A DNA stretch of 50,477 nucleotides from Escherichia phage EC125, in the sequence record ON185586.1; one strand, given 5' to 3'. Numbering within the stretch: the stretch's first letter is position 1; each line of letters begins with the position of its first letter. This document shows positions 5,904-27,263 of the stretch, piece after piece. A program made the position numbers and the translations under genes. The notes under the pieces are model-generated. The model was given only the letters and a program-made list of their open reading frames with translations, was not told the origin of the DNA and made no database searches.

Positions 5904-6689
5904 ATGAGCGATTATAGTGTAGTTATGGGTAAGTCACTTCCTGGCTGCCTTGTTGATACGACGCGTTACAATATTGATGGTTGCTGCGTATGCACTGATG
6001 AATCAATTCTCGTCGGTAAAGCTGTATTTATTACAAAAAATGAGAATGGTTATAAGATGATTACCACAAACAAGACTGGTGATTCTGTTTTAATGGGTGT
6101 ATCAATCAGATCTCAAATTGTCACAAGCATGAATGAAGAAGATGGATATACAGACTATAAGGAAGGAGATCCAATTAGCGTAGCAACTATGGGTAAAGTA
6201 TGGGCGCTAACAGAAAGCATTGATTCAGCACCAAAGCCAGGGGATAAGGTTTATGTTGATAATGATGGTTTTATTGCAACAGTTGGAGACAACCTCGCTG
6301 ACGGCTGGAGCTTTACAGGAGACTTTGAAAAACTTGATGAAACATTCAATATTGTTGGTGTGTACGTTCGACGAAAGATTGTGCATATCCACAAATTAAC
6401 AGCAGCAATTATTGAAGACACAGAAGGAAACAAGCCAGACGGGAACAGATTTAATAATAGCCCAGTGACACTAAAGGTCACCGTTGAGCCTGATTGGGCA
6501 ACTGATAAATCAGGCAGATGGGAAATTTCTATAGGTAGTGAGCATGCTTCACTTGAAGAAATTGAGGGTGGTTCGAAGGCAAAAATCACACCTAACGGTA
6601 CGACAGGTGAGGTTTATATTAACTGGACTTCAAACGATGGTTCAGGAGTTGCAGATACGTTTCTGATAAACTTTATCGACCAAAGCTAA
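5904..6689 (+). CDS. capsid-associated protein, paralog B with C-terminal Ig-like extension
   Basis: 261 aa; shares N-terminal region with 5350-5841; beta-rich Ig-like C-terminal region. Confidence 0.35.
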   Translation: MSDYSVVMGKSLPGCLVDTTRYNIDGCCVCTDESILVGKAVFITKNENGYKMITTNKTGDSVLMGVSIRSQIVTSMNEEDGYTDYKEGDPISVATMGKVWALTESIDSAPKPGDKVYVDNDGFIATVGDNLADGWSFTGDFEKLDETFNIVGVYVRRKIVHIHKLTAAIIEDTEGNKPDGNRFNNSPVTLKVTVEPDWATDKSGRWEISIGSEHASLEEIEGGSKAKITPNGTTGEVYINWTSNDGSGVADTFLINFIDQS

Positions 6690-6710
6690 TAACAAAAAAT
6701 AGATTTGCAC

Positions 6711-6729
6711 GTTTAACAAAAAGTGCTAT
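6711..6729 (-). promoter_or_regulatory. 21-bp element, inverted copy in 5' UTR of major capsid gene
   Basis: TTTAACAAAAAGTGCTAT followed by hairpin and RBS. Confidence 0.5.
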
Positions 6730-6773
6730 CATCTAGGCCGTTACATTTAACGGCCTTTTATGGAGGAAACAAA

Positions 6774-7745
6774 ATGGCTAAAAAATATGATGAACTAGAT
6801 GCTACGATTGTAGCAAATCATTTACAGGTTCAGGGCGTTAAGGGTGATGCTTCTGATATGGGCATTTGGACCGCTCAAGAGCTACACAAGATCCGCTCTA
6901 CCGCATACGAGAAAGAGTATCCGGCAGGTTCCGCGCTTCGCGTATTCCCTGTAACAAACGAGCTTTCTGATACTGACAAGACTTTCGAATATCAGACTTT
7001 TGATAAGGTTGGATACGCGAAAATTATCGCCGACTACACCGATGATCTGCCGACTGTGGACGCGTTGATGACTTCTGAGTTTGGTAAAGTGTTCCGCCTG
7101 GGTAACGCTTACCTGATCTCCATTGATGAGATTAAAGCAGGTCAGCGAACTGGCAAGAGCCTGTCAACTCGCAAGGCTAACGCTGCGCAAAATGCGCATG
7201 ATCAGTTGATTAACTTCCTGGTGTTCAAAGGTTCCAAGCCTCATAAGATCGTTTCCGTTTTCGATCACCCTAACCTTACGAAAATTGTTTCTAAAGGATG
7301 GATGAGCAAGGATGGAAACACCAAGTTCCCTGATGTGGCAAGCGATGAACTGGAGGCTGCAATCGAAACGATCGAGGAAGTAACCAAAGGTCAGCACCGA
7401 GCGACTAACATCCTGATCCCGCCGTCCATGCGCAAAGTCCTGACGGTTCGAATGGAAAATACCACTGAAAGTTATCTGGAATACTTCCAGAAGCAAAACG
7501 GCGGTATCACTATCGACTCTATCGCAGAGCTTGAGGATATTGACGGCAAAGGTACGAAAGGTTGCTTGGTTTACGAAAAAGATCCAATGAACATGAGCAT
7601 TGAGATTCCAGAAGCGTTTAACATGCTTCCGGCGCAGCCAAAAGACCTTCACTTCAAGGTTCCTTGCACTTCCAAGTGTACTGGCCTTACGATTTACCGT
7701 CCGTTTACGATGGTGCTTATTACTGGCTTGAAAAAGGCTGAGTAA
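6774..7745 (+). CDS. major capsid protein
   Basis: ORF track extends to 6723, but ATG at 6774 follows GGAGGAAACAAA; 323 aa; followed by strong terminator. Confidence 0.7.
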   Translation: MAKKYDELDATIVANHLQVQGVKGDASDMGIWTAQELHKIRSTAYEKEYPAGSALRVFPVTNELSDTDKTFEYQTFDKVGYAKIIADYTDDLPTVDALMTSEFGKVFRLGNAYLISIDEIKAGQRTGKSLSTRKANAAQNAHDQLINFLVFKGSKPHKIVSVFDHPNLTKIVSKGWMSKDGNTKFPDVASDELEAAIETIEEVTKGQHRATNILIPPSMRKVLTVRMENTTESYLEYFQKQNGGITIDSIAELEDIDGKGTKGCLVYEKDPMNMSIEIPEAFNMLPAQPKDLHFKVPCTSKCTGLTIYRPFTMVLITGLKKAE

Positions 7746-16413: not shown

Positions 16414-19400
16414 ATGGCTAAATATATGATAAGCGGCAGTAAGGGCGGAAGCAAAAAGCCATACGTGCCAAAAGAGATGGAAGATAACCTGATCTCGATA
16501 AACAAGATTAAAGTTTTGCTGGCTGTATCTGATGGCGAGTGCGATCCAGATTTCACGTTGCGCGATCTTTATCTTGATGATGTTCCGGTTATTGCCAGCG
16601 ATGGCACTGTTAACTACGAGGGTGTTACTGCTGAATATCGACCAGGTACGCAGACGCAAGATTACATCCAGGGGTTTACTGACACATCAAGCGAGGTGAC
16701 AGTTGCAAGAGATATTACCGGAGACAATCCTTATGTTATTTCTGTTACAAATAAAAATCTATCTGCGGTAAGAATAAAGATCCTGATGCCAGTAGGCATT
16801 AAAACAGAGGATAACGGCGATCTTGTTGGCGTAAGGGTTGAGTATGCCGTAGATATGGCTGTTGATGGCGGTTCTTATAGCGAGGTTATGAGAGATGTAA
16901 TTGACGGCAAGACAAGATCAGGATACGACCGCAGCAGAAGGATTGATCTTCCTAAGTTTGATGAGCGCGTTTTAATCCGAGTAAAGCGACTGACTCCAGA
17001 CAGCACATCTTCAAAGGTGACTGATAAAATCAAGCTGCAAAGTTACGCTGAGGTTGTTGATGCAAAATTCCGCTATCCTCTGACTGGACTTGTATTCGTA
17101 GAATTTGACAGCGAATTGTTTCCTACGCAAATCCCTAACATTTCTATAAAAAAGAAATGGAAGATTATTAATGTGCCAAGCAACTATGATCCAATATCAA
17201 GAGAATATCACGGGTCATGGGATGGGACTTTTAAAAAAGCGTGGTCAAATAATCCTGCTTGGGTTCTTTATGATCTGGTGACAAATCAGCGTTATGGACT
17301 TGATCAGCGAGAGTTAGGAATACAGATCGACAAGTGGAGCTTATACGAGGCTGGCGTTTACTGCGATCAGAAAGTTCCAGACGGTAAAGGCGGCACTGAG
17401 CCTCGCTACCTATGCGATGTGGTGATTCAGAATCAAGTTGAGGCTTATCAGCTAATCCGTGACATTTGCTCAATCTTTCGCGGAATGAGTTTTTGGAATG
17501 GTGAGAGCTTATCAATCGTGATTGATAAGCCGCGCGATCCATCATACGTGTTTACTAATGAAAACGTCATCAACGGTGATTTTCAGTACACAAACGCAAG
17601 CGAAAAAAGCATGTACACGCAGTGTAACGTGACGTTTGACGACGAACAAAACATGTATCAGCAGGACGTAGAGGGGGTTTTTGATACTGAGGCGGCATTA
17701 CGATTTGGATACAACCCAACAAGCATTACAGCGATCGGGTGTACGCGCAGGAGCGAAGCGAATCGTCGCGGTCGTTGGGTTTTGAAAACAAACCTTAGAA
17801 GCACTACTGTAAACTTTGCTACCGGACTAGAGGGGATGATTCCATCAATAGGTGATGTTATTGCTATCGCTGATAATTTTCAGAGTAGCAACCTAACGTT
17901 AAACCTATCGGGCCGAGTAATGGAAGTTTCAGGGCTGCAGGTTTTCGTTCCGTTTAAGGTTGATGCTCGCCCTGGTGATTTTATTATCATCAACAAGCCG
18001 GACGGCAAGCCAGTTAAGCGCACGATCTCAAAGGTTAGCGCAGACGGAAAAACCATTGAGTTAAATATTGGATTTGGTTTTGATGTTAATCCTGATACTG
18101 TTTTTGCGATTGACCGTACTGATCTTGCGTTGCAGCAATACGTTGTGACAACCATCAGCAAGGGTGATGACGAAAACGAGTTTACCTATTCAATCACGGC
18201 TGTAGAGTACGATCCGAACAAATACGACGAGATTGATTATGGAGTAAACATTGATGACAGACCGACTTCAATTGTTCAGCCTGACGTGATGGCAGCGCCT
18301 GAGAACGTTAAGATCTCATCTTATTCTCGCGTCGTGCAGGGTGTTAGCGTTGAGACTATGGTTGTTTCATGGGATAAGGTTCCTTACGCATCGCTTTATG
18401 AAATGCAGTGGCGAAAAGGTGATGGTAACTGGCTGAATACGCCGCAGACCGCTAACAAAGAGATAGAGGTAGAAGGGATTTACTCTGGCAACTACCAAGT
18501 AAGGGTGAGATCCGTTTCTGCAAGCGGTAACGCTTCCCCGTGGTCAAAGATTGCAACCGCCACTCTGACAGGTAAAGTTGGCGAGCCAGGAGCGCCGATT
18601 AATCTTACGGCTTCTGATAATGAAGTTTTTGGCATTCGTGTCAAATGGGGTATGCCGGAAGGATCAGGCGATACGGCTTACATTGAGCTTCACCAATCGC
18701 CAGACGGAACGGTTGAAAACTCAAGTCTGCTTACGCTGATTCCATATCCTCAATATGAGTATTGGCATAGCACGTTACCAGCGGGGCAAGTTGTATGGTA
18801 TAGAATCCGCAGCGTTGACAGAATAGGCAACGTTTCAAGCTGGACTGACTTTGTTCGCGGCATGGCGTCAGATGACGTTGAATCTGTTTTGGGCGACATT
18901 CTGGACAAGATTTTTGATACAGAAGCTGGTCAAGAAATCAAAGAGAACGCCATAGACAGTGCCAATAAAATCAAAGACCAGGCGCAATCAATCATACAGA
19001 ACGCGTTGGCAAATGATGCAGATGTGAAGTGGACGCGAGTGCAAAACGGAAAGCGCAAGGCTGAATATGGTCATGCTCTTGAGCTTATCGCCAATGAAAC
19101 AGAAGCGCGCGTAACTCAAATCGAAGAGTTAAGGGCTTCAATTGATGGCGAGATAACATCAAGCATCAAGACAGTGCAGGAGGCAATTGCCACTGAATCA
19201 GAGACGCGAGCGACTCAAATTCAGCAGCTTGATTCTAAATTCACAAAAGAAATCGACGGCGTGCGCAAGGATACTTCTGCAAGCATTAGCGATGTAAGGC
19301 AGACAATCACTAACGAGTCAGAAGCGCGCGCTCAGGCCGTTCAGCAGCTTGACGCTAAGTTCACGAAAGAGATAAACGACCTTGACGGAGTTATCAAAAC

Positions 19401-19992
19401 AGAAGTCGAGGCTAACATCTCAGAAGTGAAACAGGCGATCGCCAATGAGACAGAGGCAAGGGTTCAGGCTGACCAGGCATTAACAGCACGATTTGGCGAC
19501 GTTGAATCTGCATTGGTTGAAAAGTTGGATTCTTGGGCGAGCGTTGATTCAGTTGGGGCTAAATACGCTATGAAACTTGGCCTTACTTACAAAGGCCAGC
19601 AATACAGCGCAGGAATGGTGATGCAGCTTTCGCAGGGTTCATCCGGCCTTATCTCGCAAATTTTGTTTGATGCTAACAGGTTCGCCATTATGACTAGCTC
19701 TACTGGAGGGACTTTTACTTTGCCTTTCGTGGTTGAGAATAATCAGGTTTTCATTAATAGTCTTTTGGTGAAGAACGGTTCAATCACTAATGCGATGATT
19801 GGTAATGTGATTCAGTCAAACAACTTTGTTCAAAACCAGCAAGGATGGAGGCTTGATAAAAACGGAATCTTTGAGAATTACGGATCAACGCCAGGAGAAG
19901 GAGCTACTAAATTCACCAATGAGGGATTGAAGGTAAAAGATGCAAACGGAGTATTGAGGGTTGAAGTCGGAAGGATTACCGGAAGCTGGTAA
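16414..19992 (+). CDS. central tail fibre / host specificity protein (lambda gpJ-like)
   Basis: track ORF starts at 16363; ATG at 16414; about 1190 aa; FN3-like region; followed by bidirectional terminator. Confidence 0.85.
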   Translation: MAKYMISGSKGGSKKPYVPKEMEDNLISINKIKVLLAVSDGECDPDFTLRDLYLDDVPVIASDGTVNYEGVTAEYRPGTQTQDYIQGFTDTSSEVTVARDITGDNPYVISVTNKNLSAVRIKILMPVGIKTEDNGDLVGVRVEYAVDMAVDGGSYSEVMRDVIDGKTRSGYDRSRRIDLPKFDERVLIRVKRLTPDSTSSKVTDKIKLQSYAEVVDAKFRYPLTGLVFVEFDSELFPTQIPNISIKKKWKIINVPSNYDPISREYHGSWDGTFKKAWSNNPAWVLYDLVTNQRYGLDQRELGIQIDKWSLYEAGVYCDQKVPDGKGGTEPRYLCDVVIQNQVEAYQLIRDICSIFRGMSFWNGESLSIVIDKPRDPSYVFTNENVINGDFQYTNASEKSMYTQCNVTFDDEQNMYQQDVEGVFDTEAALRFGYNPTSITAIGCTRRSEANRRGRWVLKTNLRSTTVNFATGLEGMIPSIGDVIAIADNFQSSNLTLNLSGRVMEVSGLQVFVPFKVDARPGDFIIINKPDGKPVKRTISKVSADGKTIELNIGFGFDVNPDTVFAIDRTDLALQQYVVTTISKGDDENEFTYSITAVEYDPNKYDEIDYGVNIDDRPTSIVQPDVMAAPENVKISSYSRVVQGVSVETMVVSWDKVPYASLYEMQWRKGDGNWLNTPQTANKEIEVEGIYSGNYQVRVRSVSASGNASPWSKIATATLTGKVGEPGAPINLTASDNEVFGIRVKWGMPEGSGDTAYIELHQSPDGTVENSSLLTLIPYPQYEYWHSTLPAGQVVWYRIRSVDRIGNVSSWTDFVRGMASDDVESVLGDILDKIFDTEAGQEIKENAIDSANKIKDQAQSIIQNALANDADVKWTRVQNGKRKAEYGHALELIANETEARVTQIEELRASIDGEITSSIKTVQEAIATESETRATQIQQLDSKFTKEIDGVRKDTSASISDVRQTITNESEARAQAVQQLDAKFTKEINDLDGVIKTEVEANISEVKQAIANETEARVQADQALTARFGDVESALVEKLDSWASVDSVGAKYAMKLGLTYKGQQYSAGMVMQLSQGSSGLISQILFDANRFAIMTSSTGGTFTLPFVVENNQVFINSLLVKNGSITNAMIGNVIQSNNFVQNQQGWRLDKNGIFENYGSTPGEGATKFTNEGLKVKDANGVLRVEVGRITGSW

Positions 19993-19996
19993 AAAA

Positions 19997-20014
19997 GGGG
20001 GCATAGCCCCCTTT
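19997..20014. terminator. bidirectional terminator between J and the leftward operon
   Basis: A-run, GGGGGCATAGCCCCC, T-run. Confidence 0.6.
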
Positions 20015-20018
20015 AATT

Positions 20019-20633
20019 TTAATCATAGTGTGATGCATTTATAACCAAAACAGATGAAGCGGTGTAAATACCAACAGGTCCAGGAGTTTGTGCAACCTGC
20101 CTAGAAAAAGAGTAGATCCCGTTACCATACGCGGCAGCTTGAGACTCAAAAATCATGAATCCACCTAAAGCCGGATTAGGAACAGAGTTTAATGCTGTCA
20201 GTGATGGCATTATGGCGCAAGGATAGCCCATGTTAACATCAAATGCGATCCCGCTTACGCCTACTTGCTTTGCATCTAGCGGCCTCATTTTTCCATGATA
20301 AACCATTTCACCATGAGCATTATAAAACGCTATGCCGTGACTACCTGGGGGAGTCACCATATTACTAAAAGCATAAACAATAACCTCACCCTGATTATCA
20401 GATCTATCAAGTCTTATTGCGTGCCTTCCACCATTGTTAAATTGCGTGAATGATATGTATGATTTAGCGGTCAATCTAACAAAGAAAAAACATACCCTAT
20501 CAACAGGAATTGACGAAGTAAAAACGGTTCCGGTATTAGCAGATATTACGGCCCGATCAATTAGATTAACTGGAGTGAAATCTGGACTTAACCATAACGA
20601 TCCGTCTGATTTTTTTATACTCATCCCGTACAT
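20019..20633 (-). CDS. hypothetical protein (third gene of lipoprotein-led operon)
   Basis: track start is TTG; ATG at 20633 follows GGGGG; about 204 aa; no motif recognised. Confidence 0.5.
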   Translation of the reverse strand: MYGMSIKKSDGSLWLSPDFTPVNLIDRAVISANTGTVFTSSIPVDRVCFFFVRLTAKSYISFTQFNNGGRHAIRLDRSDNQGEVIVYAFSNMVTPPGSHGIAFYNAHGEMVYHGKMRPLDAKQVGVSGIAFDVNMGYPCAIMPSLTALNSVPNPALGGFMIFESQAAAYGNGIYSFSRQVAQTPGPVGIYTASSVLVINASHYD

Positions 20634-20635
20634 TA

Positions 20636-20914
20636 TCACCCCCAAAAAGTATATATATATCTTGAATCAGATCCAGAAAGCCCACTCCATGTAACGGTGT
20701 CGCCACTCACCCCTAAGTTTGGTGCGCCAGGGTCGCCACCACGCCAGGAATTCATGCCAACATATATTGCTTTCAATGATTTACCTGGCGGCCTGTTTTG
20801 GTAAGTCTTGCTACCTGATGGCTGAGTGAATTTATCAAGGAAGAAAACAGGCGTTAAAAGTCCTGTAACTTCCCTTCCTCGATCGTCATATATTGCATAA
20901 CCATATTGCGCCAT
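20636..20914 (-). CDS. hypothetical protein
   Basis: 92 aa; stop/start overlap with the lipoprotein gene (TAATG on minus strand). Confidence 0.5.
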   Translation of the reverse strand: MAQYGYAIYDDRGREVTGLLTPVFFLDKFTQPSGSKTYQNRPPGKSLKAIYVGMNSWRGGDPGAPNLGVSGDTVTWSGLSGSDSRYIYTFWG

Positions 20915-21183
20915 TAATTACACCTCAAATCAATAAATTTACTTTCATTTTGCCAACGGTTGATAAATTTAACTTCTTTATTGTCAACGCTCAACCTGTA
21001 TTGCTTTTGGCTGAATCTGTTTTCGCGGACTGCATTAATTTTGACTTCATGGAATCCGTTAACAGGGAATGTTTTAACGTTAAATTTTGCCGTGCAATCG
21101 ATCTCCTTGAAGTTGCCAGTAGGCGACGCTGCGCATCCTGTCAGAGCGGCTACAGTGGCGATAACTGCGATTAACTTTTTCAT
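20914..21183 (-). CDS. small lipoprotein, candidate Cor/Llp-like superinfection exclusion protein
   Basis: 89 aa; signal peptide with lipobox LTGC; two further Cys; adjacent to receptor-binding gene J. Confidence 0.5.
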   Translation of the reverse strand: MKKLIAVIATVAALTGCAASPTGNFKEIDCTAKFNVKTFPVNGFHEVKINAVRENRFSQKQYRLSVDNKEVKFINRWQNESKFIDLRCN

Positions 21184-21238
21184 CTTTATATCTCCTTAGT
21201 TGTTGTTGTTTTCAACTATACACGATCTTGGGCATCGC

Positions 21239-21259
21239 GTTTAGCAAAAAGTGCTATTT
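21239..21259 (-). promoter_or_regulatory. 21-bp element with promoter-like module for leftward lipoprotein operon
   Basis: minus-strand reading AATAGCACTTTTTGCTAAAC, then TATAGT at the fixed distance. Confidence 0.5.
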
Positions 21260-24258: not shown

Positions 24259-24261
24259 TTA

Positions 24262-24471
24262 GTCTAACGTGGTTGGTTTGTTTACCAGTGCCGCTACAAC
24301 CGCTTTTAGCTCGTCAATTTCTTTTCTCATCTCATCGTTTTCCGCTTTCAGTTTCTTAACGTGGTGAATCAGTGGAACAGTGAGGCGGTCATACATAACG
24401 CCTTCCGCCACCATGCCATTACTTGAAGCAATGGCAGGATCTTCTCCTTCTTGCAGCGGTCGCCAGTGAAC
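24262..24471 (-). pseudogene. in-frame continuation of the chaperone domain downstream of the TAA at 24472-24474
   Basis: same frame stays open for 70 codons (VHWRPLQEGEDPAIASSNGMVAEGVMYDRLTVPLIHHVKKLKAENDEMRKEIDELKA...) up to a TAA just before the terminator. Confidence 0.5.
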
Positions 24472-24996
24472 TTACTCCGGCGCAATTTCTCCAACCTCTT
24501 CCGCGATTAGCCCGTACCATCCCCAATCTTTACGGTCGCTTTCACAAGTTGACCGATACCAAACAGGACGCATTTCAAGCATCAGATCCGCATATTCATC
24601 AATAACCGATTCTACGCTGCTCTTATAACGAGAAGAGGAAGTGGAGCGTAAAACTTGCGACACTCCAGCATTTGGATCAAGCCATAAGTTTGCTGATTGA
24701 GCGGTTGTGCTTAGTCTAAACAAATAAAATTTCTCGTTACCAGTCAGGGGGTAAAAACTGCCACCATACCTTCCGCTACCCAACTCGGACGATAGATCAT
24801 TTTGTTTTAGATACAACTTCAACTTATTGTCAACATCAGTAGTTGATGCTTTTCCTGCAACATCCTGTTTTAGTGTCGAAACATCACTTTTCAGCTTCGT
24901 TATATCACCAGGAATAGTAGCAACATCCTGTTTTAGTGTTGAAACGTCATTTTTCAGATTCGTTATATCACTAGGTATAACAGTGACTGTAGCCAT
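24472..24996 (-). CDS. tail-fibre-like protein with C-terminal S74-type intramolecular chaperone domain (truncated by TAA)
   Basis: 174 aa; AAGGAG RBS; repeats DITNLKNDVSTLKQDVA x2; ...YGLIAEEVGEIAPE then stop where chaperone domains have PELV. Confidence 0.6.
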   Translation of the reverse strand: MATVTVIPSDITNLKNDVSTLKQDVATIPGDITKLKSDVSTLKQDVAGKASTTDVDNKLKLYLKQNDLSSELGSGRYGGSFYPLTGNEKFYLFRLSTTAQSANLWLDPNAGVSQVLRSTSSSRYKSSVESVIDEYADLMLEMRPVWYRSTCESDRKDWGWYGLIAEEVGEIAPE

Positions 24997-25008
24997 TTTC
25001 CTAACTCC

Positions 25009-25287
25009 TTAAGCCCATTCTCTAATAGGCTGATCTAACTCAACCACGTATCCATTAAAAATTACGGCATCAAACTTATCATCAATGATTCGCAAATTGA
25101 CGAAATAGCCGTCGTTCTTTCGCGCAATCTCATCGCCATCGTCAGATCGTGCAATTACTGTGTAAGTATTGCCGATTACATCGAGCATGATTGCATCCTG
25201 AATGGATTCGTTTTCGTTCCATTCAATTTCTTCCAGAAAGGCGGAAAACTCCGCCTTGTCTACAAATTTCAGTGTTAAATCACGCAT
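25009..25287 (-). CDS. hypothetical protein (possible tail-fibre accessory)
   Basis: 92 aa; start overlaps tail-fibre stop (TAATG). Confidence 0.45.
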   Translation of the reverse strand: MRDLTLKFVDKAEFSAFLEEIEWNENESIQDAIMLDVIGNTYTVIARSDDGDEIARKNDGYFVNLRIIDDKFDAVIFNGYVVELDQPIREWA

Positions 25288-27263
25288 TATACAATTTCCC
25301 CCAATTGATGATCTGTTAGTGCCTTGTGCCATATACGGAAGTTTCTAACGTGCCCGAAAAGATGGCGTTCGCCTGTACTTGTTTGTCCGCCAATCCTTAT
25401 AGTAGCCGTTGATACTATATATCTCCATTCCGTTTTTGTTTCGCTTGATATTCTGGCATTACTTACACAACAAGTATTGTAATCACTCTTTACTCTCATT
25501 CCTATGATCATCTTTTTTAGTTTCGCATTCTCGTTAACCCTTCTGTTTGATTTACCTATATCGCAATAAGGGAATCCATCATTATCGCCCTCGGCAGATC
25601 CGAAAGCAAGAATAATTGCCGCACCAGATTGATGACCTCCAGTATCAAAAACACGAGGAGCAGCATTTGGCGTTATACTCCAGTTTTTATTAGCTTCCAC
25701 AAGTAATGTAAACGGCAAATTGTAAAGGTTGTTTTTTATTGGTAATGTAACCATATCGCTTGCCCGTGTTACTGGAGTCCCTTCTGTAATAATAAAGGAT
25801 GAAGCGCACGCCCCACCTTCAACTTGAGGTGTCGCAATATAAATATAATCATCCGCGCCAGTGCCCACTCCTTTTGCCGGGGCATACTGAATCATTCCAC
25901 CTATCATATTTTCTGTATCAAGTGCCTTAATTGTCGCCTCAAGAAAGATCCATTTGCTTGCTTCATCTTTAACAGCCCTTGCAGTAATACGATTTGCAGC
26001 GACGCCAGTTTTTTCAATTGATAAATCTGTCAGATTTACGTAAGCATCACCCAAAAATGTATAAGCAGATCCATCGTAGTTTTCAAATCGTAATCGGCAT
26101 CTTAAATTTGGAGTCCCACTTTGCGCCCTGCATGATATGGTTACATACTTTTCATTTCCTGTTACATCAAAACCTCTACTGCTGGAAACGGTTACTATGT
26201 TAATCGCTGAAGTTTGTCCTACCATTTCTGGTTTTAATGTAAATTTTGCGTACTGGAATCCGAAATCATCTACACCTGATCTATCTAAGATCATATTTGA
26301 TGACTTGTTCCATTTTGAAGGATTGGTACTATTTATAAGAAGGTTTGTTCTTTGCCCCTCAATGAGCAGACCATCCTTTTCAAATCTAGGTTCATCAATA
26401 GCAGCATTAGTAAGCACCCCAGACTTATTAATGTAAGTAGCGGTTGATGCGCGTTTAAACTTAACAATCTTGTCACCTGGCATCGTGATCTCATCGTCAC
26501 CTATAACAATCTTTTTATATGACGGAGAGAATCCGGTGATCATATCCAGGGAATCATTAAACGGTATCCACACGTCCGGCAACGGTTGCAATAAATCTTT
26601 GTAAGGTTCTGCGGCCTGCTTTGCGTATTCCTCCGCTTGATCTCGCGCACTTTCAGCTCCTGCCTTTGCAGTGTTCGCAGCGTCACGCGCTGATTCAGCG
26701 CCAGACTTTGCTGCTTCAGCGCCAGTCTTTGCAGTGTTTGCAGCGTCGCGCGCGGATTCAGCGGCAGCCTTTGCAGTATCAGCACCTTTCTTGCTATTCG
26801 CTGCATTTGTTTCGCTTGTCTTCGCTTTATTCTCGCTGGTTTTAGCTGCCTGCTGGCTTGCTGCTGCTGCGTCAGCATTTGTCTTTACGTCTTCCTGGAT
26901 CTTCTGTAGCTTATCCCAATCAAAATCCTTGATGATCTCAATAAATCCAGCAAACTCCGATTCCTTCCCATGGTAATAACGCAGCGTTTCCGCTACGTCT
27001 TGCGCAAGACCGTCAACCGTTAACGAGTCATGAAGCAAGATCAGGTAATTTGTCTTCTGGACTACAGCGCCGCCAGTAGTAATTGCGCGAATGCTTGTAT
27101 CGCTAATCACTTCTGTAATCACAGCAGCTTGCAAAGGTTGAGCAAGAAAGAAAATAGTTGCGCCTGGGCGAATCAATGTTAATTGCTCACGCCATTTTGT
27201 ACCGTAACCAGTTACATAACCTTGCGCGTCCATAGACGCTTGGCCTTGTCTGTAAATCGCCAT
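25287..27263 (-). CDS. tail fibre protein (Ala-rich repeat region, LamG-like C-terminus)
   Basis: track start is GTG at 27287; ATG at 27263 after AGGAGG; about 658 aa; ...RNFRIWHKALTDHQL... C-terminus. Confidence 0.7.
   Translation of the reverse strand: MAIYRQGQASMDAQGYVTGYGTKWREQLTLIRPGATIFFLAQPLQAAVITEVISDTSIRAITTGGAVVQKTNYLILLHDSLTVDGLAQDVAETLRYYHGKESEFAGFIEIIKDFDWDKLQKIQEDVKTNADAAAASQQAAKTSENKAKTSETNAANSKKGADTAKAAAESARDAANTAKTGAEAAKSGAESARDAANTAKAGAESARDQAEEYAKQAAEPYKDLLQPLPDVWIPFNDSLDMITGFSPSYKKIVIGDDEITMPGDKIVKFKRASTATYINKSGVLTNAAIDEPRFEKDGLLIEGQRTNLLINSTNPSKWNKSSNMILDRSGVDDFGFQYAKFTLKPEMVGQTSAINIVTVSSSRGFDVTGNEKYVTISCRAQSGTPNLRCRLRFENYDGSAYTFLGDAYVNLTDLSIEKTGVAANRITARAVKDEASKWIFLEATIKALDTENMIGGMIQYAPAKGVGTGADDYIYIATPQVEGGACASSFIITEGTPVTRASDMVTLPIKNNLYNLPFTLLVEANKNWSITPNAAPRVFDTGGHQSGAAIILAFGSAEGDNDGFPYCDIGKSNRRVNENAKLKKMIIGMRVKSDYNTCCVSNARISSETKTEWRYIVSTATIRIGGQTSTGERHLFGHVRNFRIWHKALTDHQLGEIV

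Follow-up and report, generated by a model that had tools for sequence, protein, structure and literature searches.

A probable BtuB-type receptor-recognition cassette, with a Cor-like lipoprotein and a putative two-part receptor-binding protein, downstream of J in a T1-like Escherichia phage

In the Drexlerviridae, variable "bona fide RBP loci" are positioned directly 3' of gpJ, and the alleles found there match the terminal receptor of the phage, be it FhuA, BtuB, YncD, or LptD (PMC8594841). [quoted passage not shown] For the BtuB allele, the phages Bas04, JK16, and MartyMcPhage are experimentally BtuB-dependent (PMC8594841 S5 Table; bioRxiv 10.64898/2026.04.02.716166 Table S1, RB-TnSeq). 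AlphaFold3 models of the BtuB-RBP complex reach an ipTM of 0.81 for JK16 and MartyMcPhage (bioRxiv 10.64898/2026.04.02.716166); going by an apparent gene-numbering offset, the RBP of these models would correspond to the 204-aa protein described here as p204.

The locus described here lies within a window of 50,477 nucleotides, the whole stretch of Escherichia phage EC125 DNA (ON185586.1) that was analysed. The correspondence to the described BtuB-allele RBP locus (PMC8594841; bioRxiv 10.64898/2026.04.02.716166) is immediate: the position, the three genes, and their order are the same, identity to Bas04, JK16, and MartyMcPhage is 99–100%, nothing material differs, and receptor dependence is known from these near-identical phages. 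Identity over the locus is 99.1% to JK16 and 99.1–99.7% across JK16 and other Warwickviruses; the MartyMcPhage p204 is 100% identical, and FritzSarasin (Bas04) possesses the same three-gene layout with a lipoprotein that is 98.9% identical. The 1.5 kb surrounding the locus are 100% identical to Escherichia phage EC195 (ON185588.1, 50,477 bp), which is classified as a virulent T1-like siphovirus (Drexlerviridae, Tempevirinae, Warwickvirus). The locus stretch finds matches in 68 phage records, with at least 99% identity in 28 phage records. In Bas06, a BtuB phage of another genus, the layout is kept at 64/72/56% identity (p92, the 92-aa protein, 72%; p204, 64%), while the FhuA-using Bas05, the YncD-using Bas10, and the LptD-using Bas18 carry different cassettes. 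We consider it probable that the operon is the already described BtuB-type receptor-recognition cassette, made up of a Cor-like lipoprotein and a two-part RBP.

Table 1. Positions of the receptor-recognition cassette, its genes, and its predicted transcription signals in the window.
Feature	Position	Strand	Description
Tail-tip protein J	16414-19992	plus	Annotation; presumed docking platform
Bidirectional hairpin terminator	19994-20014	both strands	Common to J (rightward) and the operon (leftward)
Exchangeable cassette	19995-21129	n/a	Sole J-region stretch without homology to the FhuA-using congener PeterMerian (Bas05); whole-genome blastn
p204, 204-aa all-beta protein	20019-20633	minus	Putative BtuB-binding RBP
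p92, 92-aa soluble beta protein	20636-20914	minus	Putative N-terminal (J-docking/adaptor) half of a split RBP
Lipoprotein, 89 aa	20914-21183	minus	Cor-like; candidate BtuB-directed superinfection-exclusion factor, by analogy
Operon promoter	21215-21257	minus	Upstream block ATAGCACTTTTTGCTAAAC (21257-21239) and -10-like TATAGT (21220-21215)

The initial annotation of this DNA had described a compact leftward operon of three genes, with a promoter and with a terminator after J, and this anatomy is borne out. The three minus-strand reading frames are present where it had placed them and are annotated by GenBank in the identical record ON185588.1. The proteins of the locus are conserved down to 40–50% identity in unrelated phages; the three genes are therefore not chance open reading frames. 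Of the overlapping stops and starts that had been claimed, the lipoprotein stop and the p92 start do share one base (TAATG, 20914), but p92 and p204 do not overlap; a 2-nt gap separates the p92 stop from the p204 ATG (TGA-TA-ATG). All three genes are preceded by a Shine-Dalgarno sequence (AAGGAG, GAGGTG, and GGGGTG). Translation of p204 appears to begin at the ATG at 20633 rather than at the upstream TTG at 20645, because 14 of 14 homologues begin with MYGM.

The promoter, which had been placed at about 21239 as a motif-type promoter, is one of 13 genome copies of the motif ATAGCACTTTTTGTTAAAA-N17-19-TATAAT-like, most of which precede replication and small early-region genes. In Bas05 and Bas06, both blocks of the operon promoter are invariant and the intervening spacer has diverged, a pattern that reads as the footprint of a functional promoter. 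It is on these two grounds, the 13-copy motif and the invariant blocks in two other phages, that we call the promoter real. The motif family emerged only once the spacer was relaxed; a generic sigma-70 consensus scan called no leftward promoter upstream of the operon, and the whole 33-nt promoter, used as a query, matched only itself. The hairpin that follows J has folding energies of -15.1 kcal/mol (minus strand) and -15.6 kcal/mol (plus strand), with flanking U-runs in either orientation, so that J as well as the operon can end here, in agreement with the bidirectional terminator annotated there. The three genes would thus be transcribed leftward from one of the early/middle-type promoters of the phage itself, with transcription stopping at the hairpin held in common with J.

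Sequence searches returned little for p204: no match was found in Pfam, in NCBIfam, or among PDB sequences (none at E ≤ 1), and the protein belongs to PHROG 425, which bears the name "membrane associated protein". Neither p92 nor p204 possesses a signal peptide, a lipobox, or a transmembrane segment; both N-termini are polar, and in 19-residue windows the Kyte-Doolittle mean peaks at 0.55 and 1.18. The names "outer membrane" and "membrane associated" that databases attach to p92 and p204 are accordingly unsupported, as there is neither an export signal nor a hydrophobic segment. The AlphaFold2 model of p204, built with 14 homologues, is all-beta with a pLDDT of 87 and a pTM of 0.84, and the modelled fold matches that of the experimentally verified RBP of the same locus type, the Oekolampad (Bas18) RBP (PDB 9rpt chain C). 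A BFVD fold search returned only uncharacterised phage proteins. Within the p204 family, conservation is highest in the first 25 and the last 10 residues, with variable loops in between, which would fit a tail-anchored adhesin. We infer that p204 binds BtuB; in the proposed mechanism, it would be the adhesin that engages this outer-membrane vitamin-B12 transporter.

The smaller protein, p92, is less readily placed. It has no known domain in Pfam or NCBIfam, its comparison with PDB chains gave one chance-level match (E 0.66, a collagen adhesin) and neither pb5 nor Llp, its structure model reaches a mediocre pLDDT of 70, and no informative match came from the fold search. Its likely role emerges from longer relatives. 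A profile search with the p204 family against 1.8 billion representatives recovered 125 relatives, about a dozen of which are 309–325 aa long. In these 12 proteins, a p92-like domain is followed by a p204-like domain, keeping the gene order: the C-terminal two-thirds align with the p204 family (hhalign 99.5%, E 6e-23) and the first ~95 residues with the p92 family (hhalign 96.3%, E 1.7e-9), and the cross-comparisons, of p92 with the C-terminal part and of p204 with the N-terminal part, were null. One fusion protein is encoded in a prophage directly 3' of J and on the J strand, next to a convergent gene for an 84-aa Cor-like lipoprotein. Because p92-like and p204-like domains are joined in these fusions, one of them encoded after J, and because Oekolampad encodes its RBP as one chain of 321 aa, p92 and p204 most likely constitute a split virion RBP in which p92 is the tail-proximal domain. 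The N-terminal part of the Oekolampad chain is weak or absent in the cryo-EM map (PMC12685063). Mechanistically, p92 would be the detached N-terminal domain of the p204 adhesin and would be present in the virion. In the T1 cryo-EM structure, the distal region of J and any protein attached to it are not resolved (PMC11945409).

Both proteins of the pair, together with both proteins of the FhuA-allele pair, start with the motif YG-x-x-I/W-x-D/N-x-x-G, and p204 has a motif resembling it in its central part, as does J at its C-terminus; speculatively, it may serve as a docking hairpin. Paralogy of p92 and p204 is unsupported: BLASTP and hhalign give only a common 20-residue hairpin motif (hhalign probability 5%).

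It could also be that p204 is the RBP while p92, like the assembly proteins of tail fibres, is a non-structural chaperone and no part of the virion; a small protein gene adjoining an adhesin gene is a common chaperone arrangement, p92 modelled alone has low confidence, and its fold search found nothing specific. Furthermore, the expressed Oekolampad RBP needed no partner to bind its receptor (PMC12685063). We nonetheless judge a chaperone unlikely: the p92-like domain is covalently N-terminal to the p204-like domain in the 12 relatives, which a structural domain fits better; p92 is more conserved than p204 both in Bas06 (72% versus 64%) and in the Stx phages (50% versus 44%), as would be expected of a tail-docking part; and the N-terminal hairpin motif is common to both proteins.

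At the head of the operon, the 89-aa lipoprotein with the lipobox LTGC is as annotated: the signal peptide MKKLIAVIATVAALTG precedes the lipobox cysteine, Ala occupies position +2, and the mature protein is 73 aa long. The protein matches PHROG 1119 (Cor) over its full length (E 8.4e-8), but scores 19.2 bits against the NCBIfam Cor model NF047972, under the cut-off of 31, and a Pfam search gave no family at threshold. The BLASTP similarity to the Cor protein of Bas05 lies mostly in the signal peptide, with additional motifs flanking the cysteines. Residues C17, C30, and C88 are invariant among 13 sequences, and cysteines equivalent to C30 and C88 are also found in Bas05 Cor and in the lipoprotein of prophage L006; a C30–C88 disulfide would be expected in the mature lipoprotein. 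The protein thus appears, from these comparisons, to be a divergent and distant relative of Cor.

The idea that the lipoprotein is a superinfection-exclusion factor of the Cor/Llp type finds support as a predicted role. The match to the Cor PHROG, the lipobox, the cysteine pair, and the position of the gene, which is the slot of the structurally solved Oekolampad/Rtp exclusion lipoprotein, are in its favour; the score under the NCBIfam cut-off is not, and the role is predicted by analogy. The characterised Cor targets FhuA, not BtuB. The lipoprotein gene adjoins its cognate predicted RBP gene, and an exclusion role is plausible; by analogy with the action of Llp on FhuA and of Rtp45 on LptD, the lipoprotein should act on BtuB. 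A literature search retrieved no report of exclusion by a BtuB-type Drexlerviridae lipoprotein. In the proposed sequence of events, i) the lipoprotein would undergo export and lipidation and be sorted to the outer membrane, ii) it would engage the receptor from the periplasmic side, as Llp does with FhuA and Rtp45 with LptD, and iii) infected cells and debris would then stop adsorbing phages that use that receptor.

The initial annotation had gone further and proposed that p92 and p204 could be extra exclusion or receptor-modifying components, that is, that all three proteins form one system in which the lipoprotein blocks the receptor and the other two assist. The same assumption was made for the FhuA-type pair by the authors of the KanT1 study, who found no structural match for it (PMC13164509), which makes the proposal a reasonable one. 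A single transcript with the lipoprotein gene first, and database names invoking the outer membrane and membrane association, would suit such a system. The cassette also co-varies with the receptor, a correlation that is expected of an exclusion system as well. Homologues of the pair are, moreover, dispensable for infection in an Stx podophage. The Stx pair ORF72/ORF73 (ECs1234/ECs1235; L0126/L0127 in 933W) comprises 92 and 205 aa in the same order as here, at 50% and 44% identity, and lies directly after the J-like (DUF1983) tail gene L0125 (Sp5 ORF71) and before lom; there is no Cor-like lipoprotein. When ORF72 and ORF73 of Sp5 were deleted singly, neither proved to be one of the nine genes that plaque formation or lysogeny on K-12 requires (PMC5155283), so that an essential adhesin is not what this family provides in every phage. 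The proposed receptor of the Stx phages is BamA, reached via the tail fibre ORF67.

The remaining evidence makes a three-protein exclusion system improbable, and the annotated role for p92 and p204 is probably wrong. Lacking a signal peptide or membrane segment, p92 and p204 have no way of getting from the cell interior to a receptor in the outer membrane, and the modelled fold of p204 is that of a verified RBP. The pair also occurs independently of the lipoprotein: it is found in 277–283 phage records against 89 for the lipoprotein, none of these an Stx phage, and ~190 Stx-type podophage records carry the pair without a detectable lipoprotein. In the FhuA allele, the corresponding pair shares the strand of J, and cor alone runs leftward, a layout that separates the tail-gene pair from the exclusion gene, and fusion proteins are encoded directly after J. 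Lastly, if the pair were not the adhesin, the swapped cassette would contain nothing else to account for the change of receptor, J being 96% identical between the phages using FhuA and BtuB. Two published readings of the pair disagree, between adhesin and exclusion factor; this analysis favours the adhesin. Taken together, the homology and structure searches that the initial annotation had suggested relate p204 to a verified RBP fold and p92 and p204 to the FhuA-allele pair as remote homologues; the fold search was uninformative for p92.

The boundaries of the cassette indicate where receptor choice is encoded. Against Bas05, blastn gives a nucleotide identity of 92–94% all the way from the terminase up to and including the J stop codon; homology resumes within the lipoprotein signal peptide. 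J itself is 95.8% identical to that of the FhuA-using Bas05 and 89.4% identical to that of the BtuB-using Bas06, and at the extreme C-terminus (last 30 residues) Bas06 is closer to Bas05 than to this phage; J therefore does not encode the receptor difference. From this comparison, it appears to be the cassette, rather than J, that encodes the difference between BtuB and FhuA use. A reading in which the C-terminal tip of J recognises the receptor, as in lambda and the TolC-type Drexlerviridae, and the cassette proteins are dispensable decorations can draw on lambda J and the TolC/LamB/NupG-type J extensions, which bind receptors directly, and on receptor-associated k-mers in the J tip (bioRxiv 10.64898/2026.04.02.716166), but is scarcely credible given that the near-identity of the two J proteins, the last 30 residues, which differ more from those of Bas06 than those of Bas06 do from Bas05, and the nucleotide homology unbroken to the J stop codon all stand against it. 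A second tail-related difference to Bas05, of 516 nt, lies inside the side-fibre gene; the side tail fibre is assigned to surface glycans (PMC8594841). The genes 3' of the side tail fibre (24259-25287), considered as possible relatives of the module, are unrelated to it.

As the cassette sets which outer-membrane protein is needed, it predicts host range and a route to resistance, namely btuB loss. It is also a natural unit for receptor-swap engineering, and its boundaries, the J stop codon and the lipoprotein lipobox, are usable as cloning junctions.

Beyond the BtuB allele, the closest comparison is with the FhuA allele (T1, phi80, N15, HK022, and Bas05), in which J is likewise followed by genes for a small protein, a ~200-aa protein, and the Cor lipoprotein. 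The Bas05 103-aa protein aligns over its full length with the p92 family (hhalign 93.8%, E 1.7e-7), the Bas05 197-aa protein aligns with the first 150 residues of the p204 family (hhalign 96.2%, E 2e-9), and Cor shares its signal peptide and cysteine pattern with the lipoprotein described here. Apart from the strand layout, the FhuA allele differs in the C-terminal third of the large protein, which is unrelated, and in the receptor, FhuA. By profile comparison, the BtuB and FhuA RBP families thus appear to be remote homologues, contrary to their published description as unrelated.

The Oekolampad locus (Bas18) is found in the same place and, as here, is a leftward operon of a lipoprotein gene followed by the RBP gene, convergent with J. 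Its RBP (bas18_0025) is, in contrast, one chain in place of the 92 and 204 aa here, its receptor is LptD, which is not a TonB-dependent transporter, and its exclusion lipoprotein (bas18_0026/Rtp45) is not detectably related to the lipoprotein of this locus. Rtp45, a relative of the Oekolampad lipoprotein, excludes by binding the periplasmic side of LptD (PMC12685063). Judged from its model, the BtuB RBP has the fold of the LptD RBP; hhalign gave no sequence link between the BtuB module and either the LptD-type (Bas18) or the YncD-type (Bas10) proteins, and the link to Bas18 is structural only.

The logic of T5 pb5 and Llp, and of their BF23 equivalents for BtuB, is the same, with a non-covalent adhesin at the tip of the central fibre and a small lipoprotein that closes the receptor from the periplasmic side. 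Compared with PDB chains, p204, p92, and the lipoprotein gave no match to pb5 or Llp, and the lipoprotein, like p204, matched no chain at E ≤ 1. T5 pb5 is a single chain of ~640 aa. The pb5 gene lies elsewhere in the T5 genome, unlike the RBP genes here.

Three observations point to one portable family of adhesins: the FhuA and BtuB modules are homologous, fused versions exist, and the modelled p204 fold is that of the LptD RBP. Tentatively, p92 and p204 may be the halves of one ancestral adhesin of ~310 aa, which would also have been the source of the single-chain LptD RBPs, the FhuA-type pair, the fused prophage versions, and Stx ORF72/73. Were this so, the "four unrelated" RBP families would form a single modular family whose members dock on J-like proteins via a common N-terminal hairpin, and in the Stx phages the BamA-binding fibre would be accompanied by a second adhesin, which is dispensable and might target a TonB-dependent transporter. 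Set against the described systems, the locus itself is ordinary and already known; what goes modestly beyond the literature are the fold and profile links between the LptD, BtuB, and FhuA alleles, the split and fused architecture, and the exact recombination boundaries.

The recombination junctions of the cassette seem to lie at the coding sequence of the lipoprotein signal peptide on one side and at the stop codon of the tail-tip gene J on the other. When EC195, the record identical to the window, is compared with the FhuA-using phage Bas05, the return of homology falls exactly at the lipoprotein signal peptide, and the FhuA-type Cor encoded by Bas05 has exactly the same 17-residue signal peptide as the BtuB-type lipoprotein encoded by Bas06. 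Elsewhere in the window, 516 nt inside the side tail fibre gene lack homology to Bas05 while both flanks are homologous; this segment is a second, smaller mosaic patch among the host-recognition genes.

The cassette and its parts extend beyond these phages. Four records labelled as Campylobacter jejuni phages contain a complete BtuB cassette of the coliphage type, with 52-72% protein identity; their size is that of T1-like phages, so the stated host may be an error or stem from contamination. Short-tailed Stx-converting phages carry a homologous pair of 92 and 205 aa (50% and 44% identity to the cassette pair), located between a J-like DUF1983 tail gene directly 5' and lom 3'. GenBank gives the 933W protein L0126 as 75 aa; the homologous frame reaches upstream to ~92 aa, with a non-ATG start. 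In deletion mutants of Sp5, each gene of the pair was dispensable (PMC5155283). More distantly, a BFVD fold search matched the 204-aa protein to uncharacterised proteins of 200-330 aa from widely differing phages (Pectobacterium phages DU_PP_V and My1, Proteus 3H10_20, Providencia PSTCR7, an Acinetobacter myovirus and Xanthomonas phiL7 p23), and this recurrence of the predicted fold hints at what would be a widespread, unannotated adhesin family.

Features of the cassette, its relatives and the promoter-like motif
Feature	Sequence	Position or identifier
BtuB-type cassette	'Campylobacter phage' E6, A143, A113, A139 (49,946 bp)	MG065643, MG065649, MG065680, MG065681
92-aa + 205-aa pair	933W (L003)	6768-7618
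92-aa + 205-aa pair	Sp5	ECs1234/ECs1235
Lipoprotein signal peptide	window	21130-21183
Lipoprotein signal peptide	comparison locus L005	7160-7213
Lipoprotein signal peptide	comparison locus L004	6762-6815
Side tail fibre patch	window	25827-26342
YncD-type cassette (leftward)	IsaakIselin (L010)	6099-7473
ATAGCACTTTTTGTTAAAA motif, (-)	window	6721, 10472, 21249, 35655, 38491, 40407, 41712
ATAGCACTTTTTGTTAAAA motif, (+)	window	28851, 31340, 32410, 44290, 45756, 48390

The motif ATAGCACTTTTTGTTAAAA, followed 17-19 nt on by a TATAAT-like hexamer, occurs 13 times in the window, mostly ahead of early or replication genes. Because the conserved block is too far from the hexamer for a normal -35, it suggests a phage-specific activator site or UP-like element. 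The copies at 6721(-) and 10472(-) run antisense to the structural operon in which they lie, and their -10 hexamers are poor.

According to an RB-TnSeq study (bioRxiv 10.64898/2026.04.02.716166), sdaC and dcrB mutants were also selected by the BtuB-type phages Bas04 and Bas06; with FhuA-type Bas05, dcrB was selected and sdaC was not, among the rows listed. Phages with a BtuB-type cassette therefore need inner-membrane or periplasmic factors for infection after BtuB binding.

The YncD-type cassette of IsaakIselin is likewise a unit of three leftward genes, but in another order than the BtuB type, with products of 101 aa, 217 aa and lastly 110 aa. The third of these carries no lipobox but an ordinary cleavable signal peptide (…PLNAMA|L), and the putative exclusion factor of this cassette is thus not a lipoprotein.
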